A stretch of DNA of 64,000 bases from an uncultured virus (IMG/VR IMGVR_UViG_3300020603_000002) (lineage: Duplodnaviria > Heunggongvirae > Uroviricota > Caudoviricetes): the IMG/VR virus record IMGVR_UViG_3300020603_000002. One strand, written 5' to 3'. Within the stretch, counting starts at the first letter, position 1. Every line of letters starts with the position of its first letter. This document shows positions 2,600 through 45,308 of this stretch, in pieces. A program made the position numbers and the translations under genes. Below the pieces are notes generated by a model that was not told the DNA's origin, searched no databases, and saw nothing but the letters and a program-made list of their open reading frames with translations.

Positions 2600-3841
2600 T
2601 TAATATTTATATGTTGTGGATATTTTCCTCTTACCATATTTTTTTTCCATAATTTTTTGATAGAGATCCCAATTCAAAATTGATTCATTAACTTGACTCT
2701 CATCATCTTTTGCCATTGCGTATAGTTTTCCAATCTTTTTTAACATTTTAGTTGAAACATAGTTAAATTTTTCAATTTCCACTTCGAAAAATTTTTTAGG
2801 ATTGTCCTGATACTTGGTTACATATTTTAAAAATTTTTGTCTAATCTCATTTGTTTTTTGTAATTCTTTTATTCTTTCTTTAACATCAGAAGTTAAAATA
2901 CCAAGTGATTCCGCAAATTCTAAAAATATGTCACTTTCGTGCTCTGTCATATTTATGAATAGTTCCATTTTATTGTTAACCAAATCAATGTAAGCCACTT
3001 CTAAAACTTTATTAATTTTTTCATCAATATTCATTTCGGAAGGTTCCTCACCTATGTGCTCTAAAAGTGCATTAAGTCTATCTTCACTTCCTTTTAATTG
3101 GTTAATAAAATCATCATATGTAAAGTTTTTTATTTCTAATAATTCTTTATAAACTCTGTTATTTTCCAAAAACTCTCTAAATTGAGACTTTGTGATATTT
3201 TTTCTTTTCATGGAATAAGCAACCTCTGTTGGTCTAACAAGGTTTTCGATTCCCGAGATATAATACATATATCTAAAAAAAACTGTATCTAAAACTGGTA
3301 TTCCGAAAGTTCCTCGTTTTTGAATAGCTTGATATTCTGCGTCAGGACCAATCAAACCATATAATTTGGATTGTTTATCATACTTGTGTTTAATTTCGTG
3401 AGCTAAACTAGAGACATGTTCATCCCTCTCTTCTTCCATTTTTTTTATAAGTTCTTTGGGTCTCCAATTGTCTCCTACCGCAAATGTAATTATTAATTCC
3501 AAAGTACTCGAAGGTTGATTTTGTTTCATAAATTTATCTCTGTCGAACCCAAAAAATCCGCCCATGGTCATTTGAACTATATCTAAAACTCCTTCCTCTC
3601 CATCAATTTTTTCAAGATTTACAGTGAGTTTATATGAATCAATTTTAACTTTTTTCTTGTCTCCTAATTCAAATCGAATATTACCATTAAAAGTATACTC
3701 ATCTTGTTTTGTATCGATGGATTTAATATCTCTTTCAACAACATCATATAACATATCAGCGGCGTTTAATATATTATCAGGGACCCCTAAGGCCTCAGTA
3801 ATTAACTTGAGTTGATTATTAGTGATTATGATTTTTTTCAT
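2600..3841 (-). CDS. putative zinc metallopeptidase-like protein with shared N-terminal leader
   Basis: HExxH (AHEIKH); N-terminus MKKIIITNNQLKLITE; TATTTAT motif just upstream. Confidence 0.6.
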   Translation of the reverse strand: MKKIIITNNQLKLITEALGVPDNILNAADMLYDVVERDIKSIDTKQDEYTFNGNIRFELGDKKKVKIDSYKLTVNLEKIDGEEGVLDIVQMTMGGFFGFDRDKFMKQNQPSSTLELIITFAVGDNWRPKELIKKMEEERDEHVSSLAHEIKHKYDKQSKLYGLIGPDAEYQAIQKRGTFGIPVLDTVFFRYMYYISGIENLVRPTEVAYSMKRKNITKSQFREFLENNRVYKELLEIKNFTYDDFINQLKGSEDRLNALLEHIGEEPSEMNIDEKINKVLEVAYIDLVNNKMELFINMTEHESDIFLEFAESLGILTSDVKERIKELQKTNEIRQKFLKYVTKYQDNPKKFFEVEIEKFNYVSTKMLKKIGKLYAMAKDDESQVNESILNWDLYQKIMEKKYGKRKISTTYKY

Positions 3842-4940: not shown

Positions 4941-4963
4941 AAAAAAGGGAACTATGTCCCTTT
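4941..4963 (-). terminator. intrinsic terminator
   Basis: AAAGGGA-CATAGT-TCCCTTT hairpin followed by a T-run on the minus strand. Confidence 0.65.
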
Positions 4964-5028: not shown

Positions 5029-5262
5029 TTAATCGTATGTCTCAATACTAACCGGTATTTGAAGGTATTTTTCGATTGCGTTTTTGGTACTTGGTCCACA
5101 GATACCGTCTTCACTTATACCAGCAGAAAAACATTTATTTAAAGCTCTTTGAATGGTAATTACTTCATTATACGTATTGCTTGCTTCAGTAAGTAAGGCG
5201 GATTCAACAATATTTTCTTTTAATTTGTTGTATTGTCTTTGGGTTATTTGAATTTTACTCAT
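5029..5262 (-). CDS. small peptidoglycan-binding-domain protein with shared N-terminal leader
   Basis: IQRALN...EDGICGPSTKNAI matches the PG_binding_1 pattern (Q..L....DG..G..T..A). Confidence 0.7.
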   Translation of the reverse strand: MSKIQITQRQYNKLKENIVESALLTEASNTYNEVITIQRALNKCFSAGISEDGICGPSTKNAIEKYLQIPVSIETYD

Positions 5263-5275
5263 AATTATTTTTTTT

Positions 5276-6277
5276 TTATTTACTCCAATTTGAGAAGTTA
5301 TCAGTAGTCACCGTAGTGTCTACTTTCTTTTCTGTAGTGGCTTTCCAATCATCGGTGAAATTATCTTCACCTTCTTCACCACCTGATCCAGAAGAACATT
5401 TTTTCTTTTTAAGTGCATTTAAAGCGTCTTGGTAGTTGAAAGAATATCTTTGACCTCTTCGTGGTCGTGGATCTGGGTCTGGTACCACATTATTACATTT
5501 CCACCCACTATTTTTATAATCTTCCCAATTAGCGTGACCACATCTTTTAGCCTTTTCTTCTTTTTCATTTTTTGATTTGTCTTTTGGACATCTCCATCCA
5601 GAGTTCCTATATCCGTCTACATCATTACCCCAACCACATGCTTTAGCATTTTCTTTGAGTTTTTCATCAGGTATTTTTTTAGTTTTCTTTGCCAACTCAC
5701 TTATAGGAATCCAAACATAATCCCTCCAATCATTATCCAAATCAATGTCTCCATCAAAGTTTTCAAATAAAGTTTCATTAAATCTTTGTTGATAAATTTC
5801 GCTTATTTTACATAAATCGGGAATTGTTTTTAACATTCTTAAATTGTTCTGTATCAATCTTTCATCTGTACCAAAACCTGAAGTAGCAGCATGAAAATTA
5901 TCTGCAATCCCACGAAGAGTTTCAATACTGTTCACAGGTTTTCCCATGTTTTGTCTATTGTTTCTACAAAATACAAAAGCCTTTCTAACTCTATCGGCAT
6001 ATCCACCCCCTGTAGTTAACCAACCCGCAAGTGCTCCAACACCAGCTCCAATAACAGCACCCACAGCCGCACCTGCAGGTCCTGCTGCTGCAAGCCCTAT
6101 AAGAGCGCCTGTTCCTGCACCTGAACCAGAAGCTGCCATGATTCTACCTGTAGATTGTCCGGGATCTTTATAAGTTTCACCTTCGTTAATTAGATTTCTT
6201 TCTTTTTGTATTCTTTTCTTATGTAATGATAAAATCCTATTTGATTCTTCTTCTGTTAAAACAATTTTATTTTTCAT
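5276..6277 (-). CDS. glycine-zipper + annexin-like repeat + Cys/Trp repeat protein
   Basis: GxxxG-rich hydrophobic segment; GFGTDE annexin-type motif; two CG...Y.NSGW.C repeats. Confidence 0.65.
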   Translation of the reverse strand: MKNKIVLTEEESNRILSLHKKRIQKERNLINEGETYKDPGQSTGRIMAASGSGAGTGALIGLAAAGPAGAAVGAVIGAGVGALAGWLTTGGGYADRVRKAFVFCRNNRQNMGKPVNSIETLRGIADNFHAATSGFGTDERLIQNNLRMLKTIPDLCKISEIYQQRFNETLFENFDGDIDLDNDWRDYVWIPISELAKKTKKIPDEKLKENAKACGWGNDVDGYRNSGWRCPKDKSKNEKEEKAKRCGHANWEDYKNSGWKCNNVVPDPDPRPRRGQRYSFNYQDALNALKKKKCSSGSGGEEGEDNFTDDWKATTEKKVDTTVTTDNFSNWSK

Positions 6278-6312
6278 ATTTTAATTTTTTTTATATAAAT
6301 ATATGAAAAAAG

Positions 6313-6341
6313 AAAAAAGGTGAGAATTCTCACCTTTTTTT
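6313..6341 (-). terminator. intrinsic terminator (palindromic, possibly bidirectional)
   Basis: AAAAAAGGTGAGAATTCTCACCTTTTTT perfect inverted repeat. Confidence 0.75.
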
Positions 6342-6402: not shown

Positions 6403-6840
6403 CTACTGTTTGTAAATCCAAAGTCTAATAGAAAAACTGTTGTTGTAATAATTTTTGAATTCAATATTTTCAATTATGCCTTGAGTAATATTATAATCAT
6501 AAATTGTTCCAGAGAGATGTCCCCAAGTTGTGTTATTTAACACCAAAGTATATCCAAATGAGTTTCTATAAATATGATATGTCGATTCGACATTATTAAA
6601 TTTATATTTATTATACGAAATAAACTTAAGAGTGTCATTTCTGAGTTCTTCATTGTAGTTTGTATTTAATATTTTTTTAATAACCCAAACTGTATTTTTT
6701 AAACTTATTGTCGTATCGGTGTAGGTTGAATCGGTTATATAATCGATGGGATTGTTGGGTTTTTGGGGTTTGAATTCTTGTTTTGCACATGAAAACAATA
6801 CCACAACCATAAATAAAACTAAAAAAATTAATTTTTTCAT
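6403..6840 (-). CDS. putative lipoprotein
   Basis: MKK + hydrophobic segment + lipobox LFSC. Confidence 0.7.
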   Translation of the reverse strand: MKKLIFLVLFMVVVLFSCAKQEFKPQKPNNPIDYITDSTYTDTTISLKNTVWVIKKILNTNYNEELRNDTLKFISYNKYKFNNVESTYHIYRNSFGYTLVLNNTTWGHLSGTIYDYNITQGIIENIEFKNYYNNSFSIRLWIYKQ

Positions 6841-7593: not shown

Positions 7594-7936
7594 GAGAGCT
7601 AAGATAAATGATAATTTTTTCGATCTAAAAACTGTTTTTTTGGACAAAGACATACAAAATGGTATGATGAAAAAAAAATTTGATGGTTCATACAATGGAA
7701 TGTTATTTTTGATGAAAAATTTATCGCACTCGTTTTGGATGAAAAATTGTATTGTTCATTTGGACATTATTCACATTAAAAACAAAAAAATTTTAAAAAT
7801 TCACCACAATTGTAAGCCTTGTTTTACTAATGAATGTGATAATTTCGAAGGTGAGGGCGATATGGTTTTAGAATTACCAGGAAATACTTGTAAAGAATAT
7901 AATATAAAGGAAGGAGATATACTTCAACTAAGTTAA
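7592..7936 (+). CDS. DUF192 family protein (start revised to ATG 7592)
   Basis: GMM...GMLF...FWMKNC..LDII...VLELP....I..GD pattern. Confidence 0.85.
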   Translation: MRAKINDNFFDLKTVFLDKDIQNGMMKKKFDGSYNGMLFLMKNLSHSFWMKNCIVHLDIIHIKNKKILKIHHNCKPCFTNECDNFEGEGDMVLELPGNTCKEYNIKEGDILQLS

Positions 7937-8119
7937 CGAGTTTAATAAATCTAATATTGGATCATCAGAATCTGTGGGTTTACTATCAAAATCAATCGAA
8001 TCAAAATTATCAATATCAGTCTTTGATATTTCACCCTGATCGTCATTTTCGTTTTCGCAAATTTGAACGTTTTCTAAAATTTTTTCAAGTTGTCTGTTTG
8101 TAAATAAATAATTTTTCAT
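7928..8119 (-). CDS. small acidic protein with shared N-terminal leader
   Basis: MKNYLFTNRQLEKILE; TATTTATA 4 nt upstream. Confidence 0.55.
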   Translation of the reverse strand: MKNYLFTNRQLEKILENVQICENENDDQGEISKTDIDNFDSIDFDSKPTDSDDPILDLLNSLT

Positions 8120-9471: not shown

Positions 9472-9595
9472 GACTAATATATTTTATTGTGTTTCCCAAA
9501 CTAAATCCCAATCCCCAAGCATCTATCACTTTGATTGCTTCGTAATAATTATTTTTTCCTCCGTAATGATCTGGATGGTTTATTTGTTCAATCAT
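9374..9595 (-). CDS. DUF3310 (SaV-like) protein
   Basis: INHPDHY...EAI...GNTIKYISRAGKK...EDLRKAKWYL. Confidence 0.9.
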   Translation of the reverse strand: MIEQINHPDHYGGKNNYYEAIKVIDAWGLGFSLGNTIKYISRAGKKGKNKELEDLRKAKWYLEHHIQQLEKRI

Positions 9596-10725
9596 TCCTC
9601 CTCTCTGTATTCTTTTAATAACTCATCGTTGGATTTTGTCCCATATTTTCCTTCTAATGATTTGAGATCAACATGTGAATTCATCATATTTTTCATTTCG
9701 TAAATTTGGTGCGTTGTGTTAAGTGACTTTACAATTTCAGAAATAATTTTGTATGGGTCCGCATTTGATCCTGGTCTTCTATCTTCAACATAACCTTTCC
9801 ATTCGTTTGCCGTGCCCTGTGGTACCCTGATTGATGCTCCACGATCAGACACACCCCAACTAAACTTATCAATTGATTGTGTCTCGAATTGACCTGTAAG
9901 TCTCAAATGGTTTTGTGATCCATAAGCCCTAATATGATCTTGGTGTCTTGATTCAAATGCATTAAATAGTGCCATAAAATATTTTTCGTCTCGTTCATTT
10001 CTCATTTTATCTGTTGAAAAGTTTGTGTGCATCCCCGATCCGTTCCATTCACCATGAGTTAAAGGTTTCGGATGCAGTTCAATATGATATCCATATTTCT
10101 CTGAAACTTTATAGAGTAAGTACCTTGTCATCCAAAGATCGTCCCCCCCTTTATGTTTTCCTTCCGAAAATACTTGATATTCCCATTGACCTAATGCAAC
10201 TTCTGCGTTTATACCGGTAATATTGATTCCATAATTTAAACACATATTCAAATGTTCGTCCACAAATGACCTACCTACCACATTATGTCCAACACCACAA
10301 TAGTATTCACCTTGACCTTTAAGAATATTTCTTTTATGGCCCAAAATACTTCCATTTATTTCTTCACGAATAAAATATTCTTGTTCAAAACCAAACCAAA
10401 GATCCTCGAAACCTTCACCAATTTCGGATCTTTTATTTGTTTCATGTGGTGTACCATCAGGGTTTAATACCTCACACAAAACATAAACGGTATTGTTTTC
10501 TAGTGGAAAAGTTTGTGGAATATAGTGTCTGACGGGGTTTAATAAACAATCTGAGTTTCCTGTATCGGCTTGATTTGTTGATGATCCATCAAAGTTCCAT
10601 ATTGGAAAGTTGCCATCTAAAAACGAATTTTTAACTTCATCGTATTTGACAATTTTAACTTTGCTTCTGAGGTTTGGTTCTGGTTTATACCCGTCTAACC
10701 AAATGTATTCTAGTTTAATTTTCAT
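9592..10725 (-). CDS. glnII: glutamine synthetase type II
   Basis: EYIWLDG, WNFDGSST, GFEQEY, QGEYYCGVG, NAEVALGQWEYQ, WNGSGMHTNFS, RLTG..ET, RGASIRVP, EDRRP. Confidence 0.95.
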   Translation of the reverse strand: MKIKLEYIWLDGYKPEPNLRSKVKIVKYDEVKNSFLDGNFPIWNFDGSSTNQADTGNSDCLLNPVRHYIPQTFPLENNTVYVLCEVLNPDGTPHETNKRSEIGEGFEDLWFGFEQEYFIREEINGSILGHKRNILKGQGEYYCGVGHNVVGRSFVDEHLNMCLNYGINITGINAEVALGQWEYQVFSEGKHKGGDDLWMTRYLLYKVSEKYGYHIELHPKPLTHGEWNGSGMHTNFSTDKMRNERDEKYFMALFNAFESRHQDHIRAYGSQNHLRLTGQFETQSIDKFSWGVSDRGASIRVPQGTANEWKGYVEDRRPGSNADPYKIISEIVKSLNTTHQIYEMKNMMNSHVDLKSLEGKYGTKSNDELLKEYREEE

Positions 10726-11531: not shown

Positions 11532-12746
11532 CTATGATACTCTCATGACATAATACTCCGTTCCATTTATATCATATGTCTCGTGATCACCATCATAAGA
11601 GTTAAGTAATGATCCATATCCATCTGAACTAACTACCGTATTTACAATACTATCAGTGTCAATAAAATCCATAATAAAGGTTTTATCATAACCGTAGTGA
11701 CTTATAAAATCTTTTATGTCGTCTTCCCATTCACTAACTCTATCATTTATTTCGTTTTCTATTGCACTTTCGTCATAACCACCTTGGGGATCTTCTTTGA
11801 TTTCTTCTATTGTTTCTTCTAAACCTTCAATTTTTAACTCAAGAGCTTCATATTGATCATCAGGTAAATCTTCATTTTCCAATCTTTTATTTAAAGAGTC
11901 TAAGGTTACCTGAAGTTGTTGGACCTGTCTCATTTGTTGTTGGGAAAGTTCTAATGGAATGTCGTAATTTTCAGGATCATCTCTTACTATATCATCGTAA
12001 AAATCATATAACCAACTTGCCCAACTTTCCGTATCTAATGCACCATCAAAAACCCACTCTGAAAAGGCATCCATACCCATGTCATCTAACAAACTGTCAA
12101 CTGCGTTTTTAGCGGCATAATCGGCTTCTTCTTCTGTATAAACATCATAGGTATTTGGATTAAATCTATTATCACCACCTAACCATTGGTATTGTTTTCC
12201 ATGACCATAGGTTGCTCTTCCACTTGGGTATATGAAATATTTGTCTTCAGGAATCTCATTTCCTTCTTCATCCTCAACCATATCAATATCACCCCTCTGT
12301 TTCAAAAAATCGTAAAGAGCTTCAGTTCTTTCAGAATCATCTTCACCATTTTCAACATCCCATTCACCTTCTTCTCTTTTTTCGTCTAACTCATCAAGTT
12401 TTTGATCCAATTTTGCTTGTTCCCTTATTTTCCACATAGTAGATCCGTAGTCAGATATGTAACTATCTACGGTAATTCCTTCTGTACTCGGTACATTGGT
12501 GTAACTTATGTCTAACCTACCCATAACTCTAACGACACCGGTAAGTGATCCAACATTTTTATTCCCACTAACATCTAACGAACCAGTAATTACAATACCT
12601 TTACCTCTATATGGTTTGAGTTTAGATATTCTTTCAGCAATACCTCCAACATCTTCCAATAAATCTAAGTATTCATAAGGTGAAATTGAAACCAAATTCT
12701 CATCTTGTTCTAAAATATAGTTTTTCAAAAATTTTTTTAACGACAT
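11532..12746 (-). CDS. acidic hypothetical protein (late-motif gene)
   Basis: 404 aa, D/E-rich, N-terminal G.LD.S beta-repeat; TATTTATA 4 nt upstream. Confidence 0.8.
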   Translation of the reverse strand: MSLKKFLKNYILEQDENLVSISPYEYLDLLEDVGGIAERISKLKPYRGKGIVITGSLDVSGNKNVGSLTGVVRVMGRLDISYTNVPSTEGITVDSYISDYGSTMWKIREQAKLDQKLDELDEKREEGEWDVENGEDDSERTEALYDFLKQRGDIDMVEDEEGNEIPEDKYFIYPSGRATYGHGKQYQWLGGDNRFNPNTYDVYTEEEADYAAKNAVDSLLDDMGMDAFSEWVFDGALDTESWASWLYDFYDDIVRDDPENYDIPLELSQQQMRQVQQLQVTLDSLNKRLENEDLPDDQYEALELKIEGLEETIEEIKEDPQGGYDESAIENEINDRVSEWEDDIKDFISHYGYDKTFIMDFIDTDSIVNTVVSSDGYGSLLNSYDGDHETYDINGTEYYVMRVS

Positions 12747-14987: not shown

Positions 14988-15356
14988 TTAACCGGCCAAT
15001 GCTCCGATGTCATTCATGTGTTCTCTTGCTTCTTCCATATCATCAAAAGTCCCTGAATGTGCCTTAGCTTGATAATTATTACCAACCAATGCGATTTTAT
15101 TATCATCTTCATCTCTATAATATCTAATTTCATTTGGGTAAAAACCAAGAACTCTAAATACTTTTTTATATTTTACACCATCAATATCAATCAGACTTCT
15201 ATCTACACTATCTACAGAACTATTTTTAGTTTTGTCTTTTCTACCGAAAAAGTTACTTAAGAAACCTTCTTCCATTTTTTTTTCTTGAGTTTCACGAATA
15301 ACTCGTCTAACGATACGAGCCAAATCATTTTCTGTAAGTCTTACTATTCTTTTCAT
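14988..15356 (-). CDS. hypothetical protein with shared N-terminal leader
   Basis: MKRIVRLTENDLARIVRRVIRE; late motif at 15374. Confidence 0.75.
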   Translation of the reverse strand: MKRIVRLTENDLARIVRRVIRETQEKKMEEGFLSNFFGRKDKTKNSSVDSVDRSLIDIDGVKYKKVFRVLGFYPNEIRYYRDEDDNKIALVGNNYQAKAHSGTFDDMEEAREHMNDIGALAG

Positions 15357-15421: not shown

Positions 15422-15709
15422 TTATCTTTCGTAAAACTCTTTGATAATCTTTACACCATTTTCAATATTATCAAAATGTTGATCAGGAGCATATAATGAA
15501 GTTGTTGGTTTTTTACTCTCAAAATCTTGGATCAACATAAATGCTGGAACGTAATCGTTTCCTGTTGCATTTACAAATAAGTCGTATTCTTCTTCGAATT
15601 CAAAAATGTCTCTATCAACATAATCTACATTGGCCTCATCAAGTTGTTCTTTGAAGTCCACGCAGTGTGGACATGTTTTCATTGTATATATGACTACTAA
15701 CTTATCCAT
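15422..15709 (-). CDS. glutaredoxin-like protein
   Basis: IYTMKTCPHC...YVP motif. Confidence 0.85.
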   Translation of the reverse strand: MDKLVVIYTMKTCPHCVDFKEQLDEANVDYVDRDIFEFEEEYDLFVNATGNDYVPAFMLIQDFESKKPTTSLYAPDQHFDNIENGVKIIKEFYER

Positions 15710-16016
15710 TGATTAATTCTGTTACTAAACTTTTTATTTCCCCCTCAGAAAGAATACCAACTTTATTACCCACAACTTTTCCTCTATTGAAGGTTATGGT
15801 GTTAGGTATACTTCTAACATTAAGGCTCAATGCCGCCTCTCTATTCAAGTCTACATCCATAGTATACATTCCAACACCTGTTGTGTTTTCTGAAGCAACT
15901 TTTTCGAATATTGGTTTCATTAACCCGCAGGGGCGACACCACGGAGCCCAAAAATCAACAATTATTTTTTCTCCGTTGTTAATTTTTTCTTGTAATTCTA
16001 ATCCTGTAACTTCCAT
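15702..16016 (-). CDS. trxA: thioredoxin
   Basis: VDFWAPWCRPC, DVD, VRSIP. Confidence 0.9.
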   Translation of the reverse strand: MEVTGLELQEKINNGEKIIVDFWAPWCRPCGLMKPIFEKVASENTTGVGMYTMDVDLNREAALSLNVRSIPNTITFNRGKVVGNKVGILSEGEIKSLVTELING

Positions 16017-19067: not shown

Positions 19068-19487
19068 TTATTTAAATTCTATTCCAAGTTCATCGAAGGT
19101 TAACCAATCAGGCATATCACCTTCTCTTCCCGCCTTAGGGTCTGGTTTTGGCCCTGGTTTTGGTTTGTAAGGTGTTTTGGGTTGCTTAGGTTTGGTTCCC
19201 GGATCTATTTTAATTCTTTCTTTTTCTTTTGTACCAGGTAACATTACAGGAAGATCCATTTCTTCATCAAGTTCAATATCACCATTTGGTTTTGCCATCC
19301 CTTTGAACATTCCATCTAAGTCAAAAGAAGGAACATCTCCACTATAATCATCCATATCTACAAAACCTTCTTCGTAGTCATCAAGGTGGACTTCCTTAAC
19401 CTCAGGTTGTTCTGATAAGATACGACCTCTGTTATAGTTTAACAGATACTTCATATCTTTAATTTCCTCAATAATTTGTTTTTTCAT
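19068..19487 (-). CDS. hypothetical protein with Pro/Lys-rich segment
   Basis: 139 aa; PKPGPKPDPK; late motif upstream. Confidence 0.75.
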   Translation of the reverse strand: MKKQIIEEIKDMKYLLNYNRGRILSEQPEVKEVHLDDYEEGFVDMDDYSGDVPSFDLDGMFKGMAKPNGDIELDEEMDLPVMLPGTKEKERIKIDPGTKPKQPKTPYKPKPGPKPDPKAGREGDMPDWLTFDELGIEFK

Positions 19488-19827: not shown

Positions 19828-20082
19828 TCAATTTCCAAATGAACTGTTTTTGAAGTAGTTTAGATATTTAGCGGAATGTTGATCCCAAACAGGTTTTTTA
19901 CCTCTTTCTTTGTCAGTGTAACCTTGATCATATGAATGATTGACTATTTGTTTTTCTAAGGGTTTAATTTCCTTTTGAAGGTTCTCTAAAACTAAACGTG
20001 TTTCTTCTGAAAGTCCCTCAACTTTCAAATACTGATCTATTTTTTTTACAATTGGTCCCATGTTGTTAAATATATCAATCAA
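19828..20082 (-). CDS. hypothetical protein
   Basis: 84 aa ORF. Confidence 0.6.
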   Translation of the reverse strand: MIDIFNNMGPIVKKIDQYLKVEGLSEETRLVLENLQKEIKPLEKQIVNHSYDQGYTDKERGKKPVWDQHSAKYLNYFKNSSFGN

Positions 20083-20674
20083 AGTTTTCTAAATCAACTT
20101 CCACATCAATAGGAATACCGTATTTTTCTAATAATTTGTAGAAAAACTCATAACATTGGTTATTTAGTCCGCCAAAAAAATCTCCCGTTTCATATGCTTC
20201 TTGAGCTTCGTACAGTGCATCCCAAAGATTACCTTTCACTAAACTTTGTTCCTCAGTCTCAGGATCAAGAAAATAATAACTTACTGTTCCATTACCATCA
20301 ATATCTATCGATAGATCGACAATATCATATTTATAACCTTTTACTTCTTCGATATTAGTGACTTTAATTTCAGTATCTAAGTCTAATTCAGGAACAACAA
20401 GTCTAAAAGTTTTATCTAAGACTTCTTCTTTAAGTTTTTTATATAAATTATTAAATCCACCATTATATCTATACCAAATTGGTCTAATTGTTTGAAAGTC
20501 TTCAGTTGTATTCTTTTCAATTCCAGAAATATCATAGATAATATCATCAAGATGAGGTTCTTCACCCATCTTTTTTTGTTTGTCCCAAACTTTATAACAA
20601 AATTTACGAAGATTTTCTTCGGTAATATTTTCCATTATTAAATTTTGTTGTCGTTCTGTTATTATTATTTTCAT
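20075..20674 (-). CDS. hypothetical protein with shared N-terminal leader
   Basis: MKIIITERQQNLIME. Confidence 0.75.
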   Translation of the reverse strand: MKIIITERQQNLIMENITEENLRKFCYKVWDKQKKMGEEPHLDDIIYDISGIEKNTTEDFQTIRPIWYRYNGGFNNLYKKLKEEVLDKTFRLVVPELDLDTEIKVTNIEEVKGYKYDIVDLSIDIDGNGTVSYYFLDPETEEQSLVKGNLWDALYEAQEAYETGDFFGGLNNQCYEFFYKLLEKYGIPIDVEVDLENFD

Positions 20675-20697: not shown

Positions 20698-21081
20698 TTA
20701 TGGAATATTAAATATGTTTGCTCCATTAACCTCTTTTATTTCTACATCAGGAAATAATACTTTGAAGTAGTCGTATATTAAGTGTTTGATGTGTCTTGAC
20801 CTAATATGACTTGGAATAATTCCCTCCATCTCATCTTCTAGTGAATAATTATAATATAATGTTTTAGATCCCATCATATAAGTAAATAAACTTTAACCAT
20901 TCTCATTTTTTAATCGTATAGCTGAATACCCTTGATGTGATGAGTCAACATCTTGTTTCAACATTTTAATAAACAACTTTTTATACTTTGGGTATTCATC
21001 ACTATACTCAGCGTCCCAACGATCTCTTCTATAGTTTTCGTTGATTAAATTTAACTGACCTTCCGTGATAATGATTCTCAT
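20698..21081 (-). pseudogene. leader-bearing gene interrupted by an in-frame TAA
   Basis: MRIIITEGQLNLINE...LKNENG*SLFTYMMGSK...GANIFNIP*; the frame stays open for 64 codons after the TAA at 20893-20895. Confidence 0.7.
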
Positions 21082-21103
21082 AATAATAAATACCTTGTAA
21101 AAT

Positions 21104-21129
21104 AAAAAACCCACCATAGAGGTGGGTTA
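21104..21129 (-). terminator. intrinsic terminator
   Basis: AACCCACC-ATAGA-GGTGGGTT hairpin with a T-run on the minus strand. Confidence 0.7.
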
Positions 21130-21147: not shown

Positions 21148-22527
21148 TTATGTAAACAAGTTGAAGTCTTCATCCTCCTCAGCTCTTCTTAGAACTGAAT
21201 CAGGTATAATATTCTTACCTTCAGATCCTGGTATGTTTAACACCATTAGATTTGGCATGTCTCCAACACACTCAGGTAATCTTTGAAGGTTTTTATTATC
21301 AACCAAAGATAGGTATTGTAAATTAGGTAACTCACAAATTGATTCAGGTAAAGACACAATACAATTAACGAAGTTAAGTGCTTGTAATTGTTTAAATCTA
21401 CTAACATCACTAGGAATATTTAATTCAATATTATCACCTGATCTTGATGAGTTCTTGAATGTGAATCTTTTTAGGTTTTCGGGTAATGTCGCAAATAACT
21501 CATCAAACCCATAAAGAGCGACAAATTTAGATGCTGAGTCACCAGGGTAGTCAATAACCACTTTATCACCTTTTTCACCCGCCAATGACTTCATGAACTC
21601 AGGTTTGAAGAATTGTTTAAGTTCTTCTTCATTTGTGTTAAGGAATTCCACAAGATTGATTTGTCTATCTGATGGGTCCATGTATTGGTTAGAAGGGAAG
21701 TGGAATTGATAACGAAGGGCTGGAAGACCTGATACATCACCATGTTCTTTTTCTCCTCTATGTTTCTGACCTTTATTTGGAATAACAACATATAAAGGAC
21801 CATCTTTGATATAACGCTCAAACCAACTTAAACCAGGTGAAGATGTGCACCATCTTGTTTCACCTTTACTTTCTTCTTGATATGAACCTCCGTAGAAACA
21901 TGCAGCATTTTTACCAAGTTTACCAGTGTCTGATATTTTAGCAACAGTCCAATCTTGACCACGATAAACAATTTCAGCACCAGGGTGAGCATATGTTTTA
22001 GACGCCTCTTTTTTTTCAGTTGCAGAAGCTTTGGTTTTTTCTAAACTGAAATCTTTAACATTATCATATAAAGTATCAGGAGTCAATTTATTGATGTCTC
22101 TAAACTCTTGAGGTAATCTATTTTTGAATCTTTCAAACTTTTTAAGGTCACCAGTAACCTTATATAAGTCTTCCATGAAAAGATCTTGGAATTGTTTAAG
22201 GGCCGCCTTGTATTGACCTGATTGAGGATCCACAATGTTTAATGGATGGTCACCTGGTAACTTAGGTGTTACAAAGTTTTTTAACAACCACTGAGTATAT
22301 TTTCCGATTTTCACTCGGTCCATATCTTGTGGTTTTATATTGTCTATATCCATACCTTCAGGAAAGCTTGAAGTTGGGTCGGCTGCGATAAAAGCAATCA
22401 AAGTTTCAAACGGCATGATACCCTTTTTTCCCTTTTCTTTTGGTTTTACGAACTTATCAAAAAGGACTTGAAATCTTGAACTTTCAACAATAAGATCTCT
22501 AAGAAGATTGGTGAATCTAAGTGACAT
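21148..22527 (-). CDS. leucine-rich-repeat protein with N-terminal WCT-motif domain
   Basis: C-terminal LxxLxLxxN/LP repeats (LPESICELPNLQYLSLVDNKNLQRLPECV); central GETRWCTS. Confidence 0.75.
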   Translation of the reverse strand: MSLRFTNLLRDLIVESSRFQVLFDKFVKPKEKGKKGIMPFETLIAFIAADPTSSFPEGMDIDNIKPQDMDRVKIGKYTQWLLKNFVTPKLPGDHPLNIVDPQSGQYKAALKQFQDLFMEDLYKVTGDLKKFERFKNRLPQEFRDINKLTPDTLYDNVKDFSLEKTKASATEKKEASKTYAHPGAEIVYRGQDWTVAKISDTGKLGKNAACFYGGSYQEESKGETRWCTSSPGLSWFERYIKDGPLYVVIPNKGQKHRGEKEHGDVSGLPALRYQFHFPSNQYMDPSDRQINLVEFLNTNEEELKQFFKPEFMKSLAGEKGDKVVIDYPGDSASKFVALYGFDELFATLPENLKRFTFKNSSRSGDNIELNIPSDVSRFKQLQALNFVNCIVSLPESICELPNLQYLSLVDNKNLQRLPECVGDMPNLMVLNIPGSEGKNIIPDSVLRRAEEDEDFNLFT

Positions 22528-23646: not shown

Positions 23647-23817
23647 ATGGAAGATAAAAAAGCAACAGAAGTAAAATGCCACACCTGTGACAAAAGTAAG
23701 CAAGTCAAAAATACACAAATCTTGGTTTTAGTTTTTGGTGGTATTTTCTTTTTTTTCGGTGTATACGGAATTGTGTCTTTTGTTCACGATATTATTTCAC
23801 TTTTTCAATCCCTTTGA
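23647..23817 (+). CDS. small CxxC + transmembrane protein (not in ORF track)
   Basis: [56 protein letters not shown]. Confidence 0.65.
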
Positions 23818-24722
23818 TATTTTAAGTATTGATTTACAATCAAATCACCAACAGTTTCTAATCTAAATCCTTTTGACTTAACTCTCAAAGGTGTGGAAGT
23901 ATCTATATTTTTAGGTAATTTAATATTCAACTCACCATCAGGATGAGGAACAGAAATATAACCATTTTGTAAATCGTGTAAATTAAAGTAAGCATTATAA
24001 ACCAAATGATTAGCCAATTTATTAAAATTATTCTGTGGTTTGAGTTCAATTCTTATGACTAAATCACCGTAAGACCCATTTTTAAAATCCCCAACGTTCT
24101 TAAGCCTGAGGAACTGACCATTATCCACTCCATGAGGTAATGATACGTCTAAATTTTTTATTTCACGTTTCGAACCAATACCATTACAAAGAAAACAAGG
24201 TGTTATAAGTTTATTTCCATGACCACCACAATTTTCACACGTTGTCTGTATTACCTGTATAAAAAATCCAGACCCTACTTTTCTAATCACAACACCCGAC
24301 CCATTACAAACATTACAAAGTTTTCTTTCCCCCCCTGTTCCGTTACAAGGTTCACACATAATTGATCTTCTGTAAGAAAGAGTGTGTCTATTACCCATAT
24401 AGGAGTCTAGAACCCCGACATTTACAGTAATGTTAGTTGTATGGACAGATTGATTCGGTTTTCTTATATTAAACAAGTCAGAAAAAAGATCTTCAGAATT
24501 GTCCAAATTTACAAACGGATTTTTTCTTTTCAAGTCATAATCTTTTCTTTTATTTTCATCACTCAAAATATCATATGCGACCGATATTTTTTTAAACTTA
24601 TCTTCATTTCCTCCTTTATCGGGATGATTTTTTTTTGCCAATTTTCTATAAGCAACCTTTATTTCATCTTGTGTTGCATTTTCCTGTACTTCAAGTACTT
24701 CGTAATAGTTTTCAATATTCAT
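23805..24722 (-). CDS. dnaJ: DnaJ chaperone
   Basis: J domain with HPD, four CxxCxGxG repeats, C-terminal substrate-binding domain. Confidence 0.95.
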
Positions 24723-27166: not shown

Positions 27167-28738
27167 TTATTGAGTTTTTCCATCATAAGTCATTAGCTTA
27201 TGTATTTTTAAAAATTCTTCCGTTAGTTTTTCAACTTGTTTTTCGTTAACCGATTCTTCGATTTTACTCAAAACAGATTGTGAGCTTTTTTTACCTCTTT
27301 TGGTTTTCAAAGATCCTATTTCAGTATCTTCACCAGCTTGATCAACGGGTTGTGGTTGTCTTTTGTAAGACGCGTCTGCCTGTTCTTGACCGTAAAGATT
27401 TTCTTCAAAGTTTTTAAAGAATTTGTCTCCTACGTTTGAAGGTACGACATTCCCTAAAGCGTTTCCATCTTCATCAACTTGAGCATTTCCTGTTGTACTA
27501 TGACCTTTCAAATATTTTTCAATATTCTTTTTATTTGGTTTGATTTCATCAAATCTTAAGTTAGTTAGACCTGGACGTGAAAAAGCATCATTATAATCAT
27601 CAACAGCATCCGATGGTGTATATTTTTTTCTGATACCTTTTTTCAGACCACCATTTTCAGTTGGGAATTTTTGAGTTTGTTTCATTTCCCATTTTGAATC
27701 TTTGTCCGAAACTCCTTTTAAATAGTTAGTTATTTTTTTTGCAACACTATTTAAATAATTATCATTTTCTTTTTTATCCGCTTTATGAGCTCTTTCATAT
27801 TCTTTATATCCCTTAGGTTCTTTGAATGAAAACTTTTTTTCTTCATTAACTAAATTTTCAATAAAACTTATTAATTCATTTTCGGAAAAAATTAAACTTT
27901 CGACACTCTTACTATTTGCGATTTGTTTTCTTTTTTCAGTGATATAGGATTCTTTTACAGGAAGTGTTTTTCCGTCGAATTTAAATGTTTTTTTACCTGC
28001 TAATTTGGCTTTGTTTACTTCATTTGCAAACTTATTCCCTTCTTCAACTTCTTTTTCGAACTTAACTTCATAAAGTGGTTCTTCATCTTGTTGTTTTCTT
28101 AACATTTTAAAATCTTCTTTATCAAGTCTACCATTTTTGTTTTTATCTAATCTATGTTGTTTACCATGAAGTTTTTCTGTTATTTCTTTATCGTCACTAT
28201 ATCTATATTTAGTTTTATATGATGGCATATCGTCAGGTAATGGTGCATCAAACCTAAAATCATCTTCATCTTCCTCATAATCGTAATCCGGTGATGGCGC
28301 ATTAAACCTGAAGTCATCTTCATCTTCCTCATAATCGTAATCCGGTGATGGCGCATTAAGCCTGAAGTCATCTTCATCGAAATCATCACCATATTCATAA
28401 CTCCTGTCTGACATAAGATCCGCTTTATCTCTTCTTGACATTTTAGCAAAGTTTTTATTACCAAATCTCGGGTGTCCATCATCCATACCTCCAAGTTCCA
28501 TAATTTCAACTCCTTCGTTGTTATATCCACACTCAGAACATTCACCTTCTTTTATTTCACCACCACATTCCTCACACATTGATTTTTCCTCTTGTACATA
28601 ATCGAAAGAACCACCCGCAGGATGAAACGGAGTTTTATCGTCATAATTCAATTTATTCAAAATTGAGTTTGCTTTTTCATTCAAACTTTCATTCAAAATT
28701 TTTTGAAATCTTGATTTAATATATTGGTGTGTATTCAT
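27167..28738 (-). CDS. large acidic/basic protein with CxxC pair, tandem repeats and EF-hand-like loop
   Basis: CEECG..CSECG; 18-aa repeats; DKNKNGRLDKED; late motif at 28753. Confidence 0.8.
   Translation of the reverse strand: MNTHQYIKSRFQKILNESLNEKANSILNKLNYDDKTPFHPAGGSFDYVQEEKSMCEECGGEIKEGECSECGYNNEGVEIMELGGMDDGHPRFGNKNFAKMSRRDKADLMSDRSYEYGDDFDEDDFRLNAPSPDYDYEEDEDDFRFNAPSPDYDYEEDEDDFRFDAPLPDDMPSYKTKYRYSDDKEITEKLHGKQHRLDKNKNGRLDKEDFKMLRKQQDEEPLYEVKFEKEVEEGNKFANEVNKAKLAGKKTFKFDGKTLPVKESYITEKRKQIANSKSVESLIFSENELISFIENLVNEEKKFSFKEPKGYKEYERAHKADKKENDNYLNSVAKKITNYLKGVSDKDSKWEMKQTQKFPTENGGLKKGIRKKYTPSDAVDDYNDAFSRPGLTNLRFDEIKPNKKNIEKYLKGHSTTGNAQVDEDGNALGNVVPSNVGDKFFKNFEENLYGQEQADASYKRQPQPVDQAGEDTEIGSLKTKRGKKSSQSVLSKIEESVNEKQVEKLTEEFLKIHKLMTYDGKTQ
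28260..28377. repeat. 54-bp in-frame tandem repeat (2 near-perfect copies plus partial flanks)
   Basis: Units 28260-28313 and 28314-28367 differ at one base; encodes FRxNAPSPDYDYEEDEDD. Confidence 0.9.
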
Positions 28739-30178: not shown

Positions 30179-30532
30179 TTAAAATTTGTATCTGTTTCTT
30201 AGTAAACTATCAATTTTTTTTTCATCCGCATTTTTAATTTCGTTTTCCTTGACAGTATAGTAGTTTTTTATTTCGTTTCTTTGGATTTTGATTTTGGATA
30301 TTTTTTTATCAATTTTTTTTATTTCAGATTGGTAAAAAGTTATAGAATCTTGTATTTGAGATTGTTTTTTTTGTATTTCTTTGATTCGGGTTTCTATTTG
30401 TTCTAGTTTATATTTATTTAATTCAGTTACGGTTTTAACAGGTGTAAAAACTTTCATAAGTAAATATGATAGAACTATACCTAATATTATTAGTATTATG
30501 TTTTTCCAATTATATGTAAAAAATTTTTTCAT
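30179..30532 (-). CDS. membrane-anchored coiled-coil protein (i-spanin-like candidate)
   Basis: N-terminal TM helix followed by a long coiled coil. Confidence 0.5.
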   Translation of the reverse strand: MKKFFTYNWKNIILIILGIVLSYLLMKVFTPVKTVTELNKYKLEQIETRIKEIQKKQSQIQDSITFYQSEIKKIDKKISKIKIQRNEIKNYYTVKENEIKNADEKKIDSLLRNRYKF

Positions 30533-31116
30533 TTTTTGGTATCTTCTTGTCTTGAAGCAACAATTTTACTCCATTTATTTTTAAATTTTTGGTAATAAGA
30601 TTGTAACTTTGATATAGTTAATAAATGATTTTGATCAATTTTTATCATTTGACCATTTATATAAATTCCGTCGGATTCATTTACTGTATAAAAAAATTCC
30701 AAATTACTTTCTAATAATTTTCCTGTCCATTCTACGTTTTCACTGAAAACATTTAATTTACCAAATTCAACAAGTTCTGCAACATCCGTTCTAAACTCAT
30801 CCACGCTAGAAGTAAAAGCATTTTTCTCGTCTGTTGTAATTTGTAAGTCAGCCTCTTTTTTTCCGTGGAAAACTATCAGATTACCCAAAATTCTGTATGT
30901 TTTTTGTTTATCTTTTTTTATCCCAATTTCGTCAGAATCTTTTTTTTCTTTATTGGATAAAGATCCGTCTGAATCTTCGATTTTATCTTTTTCTAAAATT
31001 GCCTCACTTAAAATACCATATTTTTTTTTGATATTACTTACATCTTCGTTGAGTTCTTTATTAAGAATTACTTTGGATCTCTTGATTAAACTCTTTATTT
31101 CTTCAAAATTATTCAT
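30529..31116 (-). CDS. hypothetical protein
   Basis: 195 aa ORF. Confidence 0.7.
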   Translation of the reverse strand: MNNFEEIKSLIKRSKVILNKELNEDVSNIKKKYGILSEAILEKDKIEDSDGSLSNKEKKDSDEIGIKKDKQKTYRILGNLIVFHGKKEADLQITTDEKNAFTSSVDEFRTDVAELVEFGKLNVFSENVEWTGKLLESNLEFFYTVNESDGIYINGQMIKIDQNHLLTISKLQSYYQKFKNKWSKIVASRQEDTKK

Positions 31117-33252: not shown

Positions 33253-34053
33253 TTATAAATAATCAAATAATTCTGTAGAATCGTTTCTTAGTCGACGAAT
33301 AGCCTTTTCTTTAATCTGACGAACTCTTTCTTTTGTTAAACCAAAATCACTTCCAATATCTTCTAAAGTTCGTGGTGTTCCCGTCAAACCAAAATAATCA
33401 CAAACAATAACTTTTTCGCGAGTGTCTAAAACATCTAAAAGAGTCATCAACTTATCTTTAAGAATATCTTGGGTATTAAAAAATGCGTCAGGCAAAACGG
33501 CATTTTTATTTTCAATCATATCTAACAAAGTATCACCTTCTTCATTGATATTCATGTCAAGATCGATTATTGAAGGTAATGTTGAAAACTTGTCCTCAAG
33601 TTTTTTTCCTGACTGCTCAACCTCTTTTTTTGCCTTTTGTAGATCCTGCACCACATTGACCGGTAGTCGAATGGTTCTTGCGTTGTCATTTAAAGACTGA
33701 ATGATCGATTGTTTAATCCACCACACACCATAAGATATAAAACGGAGATCTTTTTCCCAATCAAAGTTTTTAATTGCCTTCATAAGTCCTAAATTTCCTT
33801 CAGCAATCAAATCAGACAAATCAAGTCCTTGATTTTGATATTGTTTTGCTACCGTAATTACAAAACGAAGATTTCCTTCAATGATCTCTTGCTCAATTCG
33901 TCTTCGTTCATAAGTTGGTGTTTCTTCTGACTTCATTTTTTTTGCCAACTCTTTTTCTCTTTCTACAGTCATTACCTTAATTTTTCGAATATCCTTTAGG
34001 TAATGTTGTATTTCCTCTTGATTTATATGTGCTCCCGTGTTTTTGTCTTTCAT
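33253..34053 (-). CDS. RNA polymerase sigma-70 family factor
   Basis: YLKDI, NLRFVITVAKQY, DLIAEGNLGL, RFISYGVWWIKQSI, IRLP, TLEDIG..FGLTKERVRQI. Confidence 0.95.
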   Translation of the reverse strand: MKDKNTGAHINQEEIQHYLKDIRKIKVMTVEREKELAKKMKSEETPTYERRRIEQEIIEGNLRFVITVAKQYQNQGLDLSDLIAEGNLGLMKAIKNFDWEKDLRFISYGVWWIKQSIIQSLNDNARTIRLPVNVVQDLQKAKKEVEQSGKKLEDKFSTLPSIIDLDMNINEEGDTLLDMIENKNAVLPDAFFNTQDILKDKLMTLLDVLDTREKVIVCDYFGLTGTPRTLEDIGSDFGLTKERVRQIKEKAIRRLRNDSTELFDYL

Positions 34054-44984: not shown

Positions 44985-45308
44985 TTATCTTCGTCTTCTA
45001 AAATATCTTGATTCCGACATTGTCTCCATATCCATATCCATTTTGTTTTTACCCCAATTTGGATTTGGTCTTTGACTTGCAATGTCCATATCATTTTTTT
45101 CACTTCTAATTGCAAATTCCAATTCTTTCAAGTCAGACATAATTTCATCTGGTGTTCTTGCACCCAATGTACCACCTCTTTCTTCTAAAAAACTTCTCAA
45201 AAAGTCCATAGCACTTCTTTGTTCTGTTCTTTCATCTTCCATTTCAAAAATGGTTCTTTTAACTATTCTTGATAAATCTCTTTCTGTTAATTTAACTATT
45301 TTTTTCAT
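44985..45308 (-). CDS. hypothetical protein with shared N-terminal leader
   Basis: MKKIVKLTERDLSRIVKRTIFE; late motif at 45320. Confidence 0.75.
   Translation of the reverse strand: MKKIVKLTERDLSRIVKRTIFEMEDERTEQRSAMDFLRSFLEERGGTLGARTPDEIMSDLKELEFAIRSEKNDMDIASQRPNPNWGKNKMDMDMETMSESRYFRRRR

Follow-up and report, generated by a model that had tools for sequence, protein, structure and literature searches.

A single annexin repeat behind a putative head-targeting leader in a giant T4-like phage

Annexin repeats, familiar above all from animal cells, bind calcium and lipid. The type II calcium site of annexins consists of a GxGT loop and an aspartate or glutamate approximately 40 residues further downstream, as described in PMC3588008. 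The survey reported in PMC3894181 found annexins in neither viruses nor archaea, and as of PMC10569963, no prokaryotic annexin had been characterised biochemically. A virus-encoded annexin was not found in the literature covered here (listings and abstracts), and the word “annexin” is absent from two jumbo-phage reviews in their available form (PMC7824862, PMC13282480). According to PMC3482391, single annexin domains occur in toxins delivered by phage-tail-like PVC systems, and these domains are the nearest precedent for the protein described here. In phage T4, the head protease gp21 cuts after the motif L/I-X-E and thus removes the targeting propeptides of internal proteins (as outlined in PMC9026906 and PMC5694885).

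In this work we analysed a window, i.e., the whole stretch of 64,000 nucleotides, which is part of the large (giant) T4-like genome of an uncultured phage. The gene reported in the first-pass annotation is present on the minus strand (6277-5276) and codes for 333 amino acids, and the plus-strand frame over the same stretch is closed. The gene and its immediate surroundings comprise the following features:

5276..6277, minus strand: gene for a 333-residue protein with leader, glycine zipper, capped annexin repeat (disulfide-type), two Cys/Trp repeats and a variable tail, assigned from sequence and predicted fold
6182..6277, minus strand: basic helical leader, residues 1-32, ending in LINE; putative head-targeting propeptide with a T4-type L/I-X-E site
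6014..6142, minus strand: glycine zipper, residues 46-88, an uncharged, Gly/Ala-rich hydrophobic hairpin; probable membrane anchor, optional across the family
5960..6001, minus strand: extra helix ahead of the repeat, residues 93-106, carrying the conserved C104 (5966-5968)
5684..5926, minus strand: single annexin repeat, helices A-E, residues 118-198, with the conserved C156 (5810-5812) in helix C
5861..5878, minus strand: GxGTDE loop of the type II calcium site, residues 134-139
5747..5749, minus strand: D177, the acidic cap, 40 positions past T137 and inside a conserved acidic DGDID loop
5585..5659, minus strand: first Cys/Trp repeat, residues 207-231, two short helices and one Cys pair
5492..5563, minus strand: second Cys/Trp repeat, residues 239-262
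5279..5491, minus strand: tail, residues 263-333, Pro/Gly-rich and mostly of low confidence, common to alleles in which other cargo replaces the annexin module
5029..5262, minus strand: gene for a 77-residue protein with its own leader and a stand-alone peptidoglycan-binding domain, without a catalytic domain
6295..6301, minus strand: TATTTAT, 24 nt ahead of the annexin gene start; putative late promoter element
6313..6340, minus strand: terminator-like hairpin ending the upstream genes
4944..4963, minus strand: terminator-like hairpin ending the two-gene unit for the annexin and peptidoglycan-binding proteins

Relatives of the 333-residue protein are encoded in 77 viral loci (4 identical). 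One of these, L076, shares its neighbours with the window and sits in a record of 272,576 bases that also holds genes for a gp21-type protease, a gp23-type capsid protein, portal and terminase. No match to the protein was found in the nearest virus record (G001, 52% complete), and none to the whole protein in GenBank phage records at E≤0.01, where the module yielded one chance match (E=0.5). Prokaryotic genomes were searched with a single pattern, which 1 of 69 stretches passed through a 15-residue match that is not an orthologue, and the ESM Atlas returned no usable match for either the whole protein or residues 200-266. A PHROGs assignment as tape-measure protein was rejected, since the protein has only 333 residues, is encoded away from the tail genes and matches via low-complexity sequence.

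Directly upstream of the locus lies a conserved lipoprotein-like gene (6403-6840; hydrophobic signal, Cys, then charged residues), a pattern that presumably recalls the surface lipoproteins of Bacteroidota and may hint at the host. Elsewhere, the window contains host-like genes for glutamine synthetase (9592-10725), DnaJ (23805-24722) and a sigma-70 factor (33253-34053), small thioredoxin- and glutaredoxin-like genes with CxxC motifs (15422-16016), as well as an array of large genes rich in Cys, Thr and Pro (43440-63969), which probably code for tail and baseplate components and mostly lack family matches.

The annexin repeat and its calcium site

The annexin-like stretch proposed in the first-pass annotation corresponds to residues 124-178. 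A Pfam search, which had been suggested as a check, matched PF00191 at E=0.0014 and 19.1 bits; this is under the cut-off of 25 for the protein alone, while the cut-off is passed by 11 of 101 distant single-repeat relatives, and 24 of these 101 reach E≤0.001. Annexin XII is matched by the protein alone at E=4.5e-6, summed over four repeats. A module profile, built from 32 viral copies of residues 93-200, retrieved 77 distinct PDB sequences at E≤0.01, and the 60 listed among these are without exception annexins or annexin fusions. Annexin VI reached E=4.3e-22 with this profile when summed over its repeats, and 0.0066 for the best single repeat.

AlphaFold2 predicts the five annexin helices (residues 118-133, 139-147, 152-166, 170-177 and 181-198; pLDDT 85-95), and the predicted annexin fold extends over the GTDE region. 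Upon comparison of the model with 48,161 solved chains, ranks 1-7 are taken by annexins or giardins (rmsd 1.3-3.1 Å, 62-78 residues) with Z values of 9.4-7.6, a range which, according to the tool's warning, unrelated helical bundles can also reach. Rank 8 is astrotactin-2 (Z 7.1), where the matched region is presumably its annexin-like domain, and the next match follows at Z 6.1. Foldseek, the second check suggested, returned nothing from the PDB at E≤0.001, yet an annexin or giardin appears in 45 of the 48 titles listed. Viral models likewise gave no match at E≤0.001, the best being an uncharacterised phage protein of 801 residues (rmsd 2.1 Å, 85 columns, E=0.074).

Because the Z range is ambiguous and no Foldseek match reached E≤0.001, the case for an annexin rests on sequence, predicted fold and conserved calcium ligands combined. 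A chance resemblance was rejected in view of the profile matches in the PDB, the Pfam matches of the relatives and the conserved ligands, and the protein almost certainly carries one true annexin repeat. The canonical annexin core comprises four or eight repeats; here there is one, and each of five related records (5/5) contains a single copy of the module. One relative has already been labelled “Annexin” by a database source.

A profile search of 1.84 billion representatives yielded 1,534 proteins at E≤0.001. The best 150 of these 1,534 were pooled with another relative set to give 205 proteins, of which 157 contain a single full module, 44 are long and carry multiple repeats, and 4 belong to neither group. 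Most of the 157 listed single-module relatives come without genomic context, and they are treated as phage proteins because of their leaders. The 44 long proteins (within P0060-P0199) contain 3-9 annexin repeats, are mostly unnamed and include one from a diplonemid transcriptome, which suggests a much wider distribution of multi-repeat annexins than that given in the 2014 survey.

The type II site is formed here by G134, G136 and T137 together with D177. Among the 157 listed relatives, the loop threonine is conserved in 156 and the acidic cap in 154, while 145 combine G-T with the cap, and the spacing from threonine to cap is 40 residues in 105 (range 38-44). As judged from the sequences, the calcium site is intact, and Ca2+-dependent lipid binding is predicted; a single site may bind a membrane weakly. 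An acidic DGDID-type loop, a Trp and a Pro are conserved like the calcium ligands, and in 134 of the 157, the loop position between the two glycines holds a hydrophobic residue (L, F, V, W, M, I or Y).

Alternatively, the calcium site could have been retained solely because the fold, or the recognition of a target protein (as a decoy or inhibitor), depends on it, with no lipid being bound. A single repeat lacks the multivalency that four repeats provide (as described in PMC3588008), and the acidic loop, Trp and Pro, being equally conserved, could form another surface. Still, a hydrophobic loop residue is shared with bacterial and plant annexins, where it has been linked to membrane binding (PMC3894181), and 137 of the 157 listed relatives have a hydrophobic segment ahead of the module, which renders such a non-lipid role quite unlikely.

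The positions of C104 (extra helix) and C156 (helix C) are both occupied by cysteine in 153 of the 157 relatives; both cysteines are absent in 3, and only one is present in 1. Since the cysteines are kept or lost as a pair, a C104-C156 disulfide is suggested. The predicted extra helix and this conserved pair set the family apart from known annexins. The Cys/Trp repeats, which follow the module, each span approximately 25 residues, with a predicted fold of two short helices, and occur in two copies in 11 listed relatives, in one copy in 46 and not at all in 100. Folded alone from a poor 13-row alignment, they reached an uninformative best structural Z of 2.2. No catalytic family was found for the C-terminal part in Pfam, PHROGs or NCBIfam, and it comprises the two 25-residue repeats and the low-confidence tail.

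Leader motif and exchange of cargo

The leader ends in LINE (residues 29-32; INE at 30-32) and thus contains the L/I-X-E motif of T4 propeptides. A gp21-type protease along with a gp23-type capsid protein is encoded in 3 of 5 related records, and in both of the two records that are at least 90% complete. LINE also occurs at residues 57-60 in all 3 related-phage capsid proteins examined, 12 residues ahead of an anchor located 27 residues into the mature form of T4 gp23, and hence close to the T4 position without coinciding with it.

Within the first 50 residues of 148 relatives, L/I-X-E is found 369 times, compared to 142.6 times in shuffled sequences (2.6-fold), and 89 of 92 distant representatives bear it within residues 15-50 (40.4 expected), figures which concern a short motif and related sequences that are not independent. 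In the mature parts, the motif occurs at 0.87 (module) and 0.72 (after the module) times expectation, and four further copies lie in the mature part of this protein (158, 170, 192, 207). A stricter leader pattern matched 132 of 148 relatives (26 expected), but had been designed after the sequences were seen, and therefore, the published motif was used instead. In relatives that lack the zipper, the module begins directly after the L/I-X-E motif.

TATTTAT, a candidate late promoter element, precedes 27 of 32 distinct annexin genes, compared to 68 of 268 background non-leader genes in G003. The motif also lies ahead of portal, terminase and protease genes, and of one NUDIX gene. In the window alone, where leaders were assigned with a crude classifier, TATTTAT is found at 3 of 10 leader genes and 15 of 74 other genes (p=0.44), i.e., without a link.

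The protein is likely packaged into the head and cleaved in the manner of T4-type cargo. The first-pass annotation had described it as ejected; this claim has gained indirect support, which stems from evidence other than that originally adduced, namely from a leader with a T4 head-protease motif and from the late-type upstream motif.

About a dozen unrelated proteins of the window possess short basic leaders that end in an (I/L)-x-E-type motif, and they form a probable set of head-packaged cargo. The leader-bearing genes are:

2600-3841, 5029-5262, 7928-8119, 11532-12746, 14988-15356, 19068-19487, 20075-20674, 20893-21117, 21148-22527, 27167-28738, 30529-31116, 44985-45308

In G003, the motif is present at residues 9-45 of 24 out of 219 proteins, as compared to 5 out of 219 for mid-protein segments. 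The leader-bearing 413-residue product of 2600-3841 harbours an HExxH motif (residues ~148-152) and is possibly a zinc protease cargo; it belongs to no Pfam, PHROG or NCBIfam family, and it is conserved downstream of the locus in relatives. The leader-bearing product of 21148-22527 (459 residues) carries C-terminal leucine-rich repeats (Pfam LRR_14, E=3.8e-6), which match models of LRR effectors through the repeats only and far under the cut-off.

The zipper-annexin cassette follows several leaders that are unrelated to one another. At 4 loci (L078-L081) the window's locus holds other cargo in place of this cassette: there, as well as at L045:8970-9953, an allele or tandem paralogue keeps leader and tail but bears an unrelated, beta-rich-looking domain instead of zipper and annexin. 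At L077:7656-9497 and L075:143-1474 the cassette is inserted within a homologue of the window's 523-residue leader-bearing protein (27167-28738), which points to movement of the cassette between cargo genes.

Peptidoglycan-binding neighbour, glycine zipper and proposed function

Our preferred explanation of the whole, to which we assign a probability of roughly 0.45, is that the protein serves as an accessory virion cargo that would bind host membrane lipid via calcium. It is probably loaded in the head and released onto the host cell envelope. Provided that it is packaged, calcium-dependent lipid binding on the envelope side appears reasonably likely, and the original description as membrane-acting is plausible. 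In detail, the annexin protein would be made late in infection, its leader would load it into the prohead, and the phage's T4-type head protease would trim it after E32. At infection, the protein would be ejected into the periplasm, a step less well supported than packaging. There, the cysteine pairs would oxidise, the freed N-terminal glycine hairpin would insert in a membrane, and the annexin face would clamp anionic phospholipid via Ca2+. Together with the co-transcribed peptidoglycan-binding peptide, the protein would then stabilise the envelope where injection takes place, or patch it there, and would not build a DNA channel.

The peptidoglycan-binding gene (5262-5029) indeed lies directly behind the annexin gene, as the first-pass annotation had it, and starts 13 nt downstream. 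Its product matches Pfam PG_binding_1 at E=1.4e-4 and 22.4 bits (cut-off 23), and the two genes sit together between two terminator-like hairpins. The loci contain 47 distinct annexin-bearing sequences, 9 of which were dropped as truncated; of the 38 assessed, 24 have a peptidoglycan-binding gene as direct neighbour and 2 have one no more than 2.5 kb away, while for the other 12 none was detected. The gene is also present beside the non-annexin alleles (4/4 loci), and a peptidoglycan-binding domain is fused to the annexin relative in 7 of 101 cases by Pfam and in 8 of the 157 listed relatives by a local profile. The proposal of an “entry pair” is thus favoured by the two-gene unit and the frequent adjacency, and disfavoured by the undetected cases and the company of non-annexin alleles; the link between annexin and peptidoglycan binding is real but loose.

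An extracytoplasmic site of action is favoured, because the cysteine pairs are kept and a peptidoglycan-binding domain is adjacent or fused. The internal proteins of T4 act in the cytoplasm and not in the periplasm, which counts against a periplasmic site. In an alternative reading, the protein would be packaged in the head but delivered to the cytoplasm, where it would bind the inner face of the inner membrane as Ca2+ leaks in at the puncture, and either seal the site or shield against host defences that damage membranes. The evidence for packaging is identical in this case, T4 IPI* is a counter-defence cargo acting in the cytoplasm (PMC3012670), eukaryotic annexins are described to repair membranes, annexin A4 affects cell division in Escherichia coli (as stated in PMC10569963), and the locus swaps cargo like arms-race loci do. 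We consider cytoplasmic delivery rather unlikely, given that the cysteine pairs in the annexin module and the Cys/Trp repeats, as well as the linkage or fusion to peptidoglycan binding, point outside the cytoplasm, and that cytoplasmic Ca2+ is generally low.

The glycine zipper, which had also been noted ahead of the repeat, is present at residues 46-88 (G53-G57-G61 and G69-G73-G77-G81-G85). It features eight glycines in register and no charge, and Gly and Ala make up 62% of residues 46-92. Its hydropathy of 1.9 over 19 residues is enough to span a membrane, and its pLDDT in the model is <50 over most of its length. Known zipper families are matched by this protein only below their cut-offs, and by 10-11 of 42 relatives at E≤0.01. 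Among the 20 listed relatives outside the 137 with a hydrophobic segment, about 11 are, by our own reading, full-length without any segment, and the rest are borderline or truncated; in some relatives, the zipper is shortened.

The first-pass annotation associated the zipper with pore formation, and in the strong form of this idea the zipper would oligomerise to a pore or DNA conduit, which the annexin repeat docks on the membrane. The zipper does resemble membrane segments of ejection proteins: it matches the crAss001 cargo protein gp45 at E=0.004, for which a membrane helix is predicted at residues 136-158 (PMC10172136), and P22 gp7 is matched in 2 of 42 relatives. Yet, both are low-complexity Gly/Ala matches, and a low-confidence segment with sub-cut-off family matches, which about 11 of the 157 listed relatives lack and others have shortened, leaves pore formation unsupported. 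Moreover, an essential conduit is hardly compatible with the replacement of the whole cassette at the same locus in 4 loci, and T4-type tails are thought to form the conduit with the tape measure protein (PMC9022992). A pore or conduit is therefore distinctly improbable, and since the zipper is optional in the family, it is better explained as a dispensable anchor than as an essential pore.

An anchor of this kind could also belong to a late protein that never enters the virion, with the zipper in the inner membrane and the annexin in the periplasm, tying the membrane to the wall for lysis timing or superinfection exclusion. The membrane-spanning hydropathy, the cysteine pairs, the peptidoglycan-binding partner and the late-type motif would all fit. 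However, the approximately 11 relatives without a hydrophobic segment would have no export route, and their module starts at the L/I-X-E motif; furthermore, the peptidoglycan-binding partner has a similar leader and neither signal peptide nor membrane segment. A non-virion role is thus improbable, and head-packaged, envelope-directed cargo remains the preferred reading.

A more speculative and unlikely elaboration of this reading is a virus-encoded membrane tether or patch, the calcium face of which would grip a second or sharply curved bilayer. Helix C, the site of C156, is located on the concave side of annexins, opposite to the calcium face (as described in PMC3588008). Should a C104-C156 bond fix the extra helix, together with the hairpin anchor, to this concave side, the calcium face would point away from the anchoring membrane. 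The inner membrane is drawn up to the tail in T4 infection (PMC9022992); ejected copies of a tether might draw the inner membrane to the tail, or seal the puncture after passage of a 300-kb genome, and would then be the phage's single-repeat equivalent of annexin-based membrane repair in eukaryotes.

Comparison with known systems

The family offers roughly 100 small and diverse annexins that have a single repeat and an intact calcium site. They constitute a natural series with or without anchor, with or without cysteines, and with the peptidoglycan-binding domain fused or separate, which makes an old question testable: does one annexin repeat alone bind calcium and membrane? In addition, the family suggests a class of cargo in phage heads whose site of action would be the host envelope and not the cytoplasm.

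Compared to eukaryotic annexins and alpha-giardins (PF00191; annexin A2, A5, A6 and XII), the phage protein has one repeat instead of four or eight, and adds an N-terminal helix, a cysteine pair, a hydrophobic hairpin and a phage leader. It shares the single repeat, the GxGTD motif and the hydrophobic loop residue with the bacterial annexins described by Kodavali et al. 2014 (PMC3894181), which include single-domain ones in Bacteroidetes, and some of which also possess membrane segments and extra domains. Bacterial annexins are almost devoid of cysteines according to the same survey, whereas the phage family has kept the cysteine pair almost without exception and strongly conserves the acidic cap.

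As in the toxins of PVC secretion systems reported by Zhang et al. 2012 (PMC3482391), one annexin repeat forms part of what is, in the phage, a putative injected cargo: the toxins travel in a phage-tail-like contractile injector, and their annexin domain has been proposed to assist in breaching or engaging target membranes. In these toxins, the annexin domain always precedes an enzymatic domain, whereas the phage protein has no detected catalytic domain and its putative vehicle is the phage head. The Gly/Ala-rich hydrophobic segment near the N-terminus is reminiscent of crAss001 gp45 and P22 gp7; these belong to short-tailed phages that build a conduit, while in this family the zipper can be missing and the gene can be replaced. 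Finally, a putative N-terminal propeptide ending in L/I-X-E and variable cargo behind a shared leader are found as in the gp21-cut T4 proteins IPI-III and Alt, and the corresponding gp21- and gp23-type genes are present in the relatives' records. In contrast to T4, where the leader comprises 10-20 residues, the leader has approximately 32 residues here, the cargo looks extracytoplasmic, and packaging is putative.
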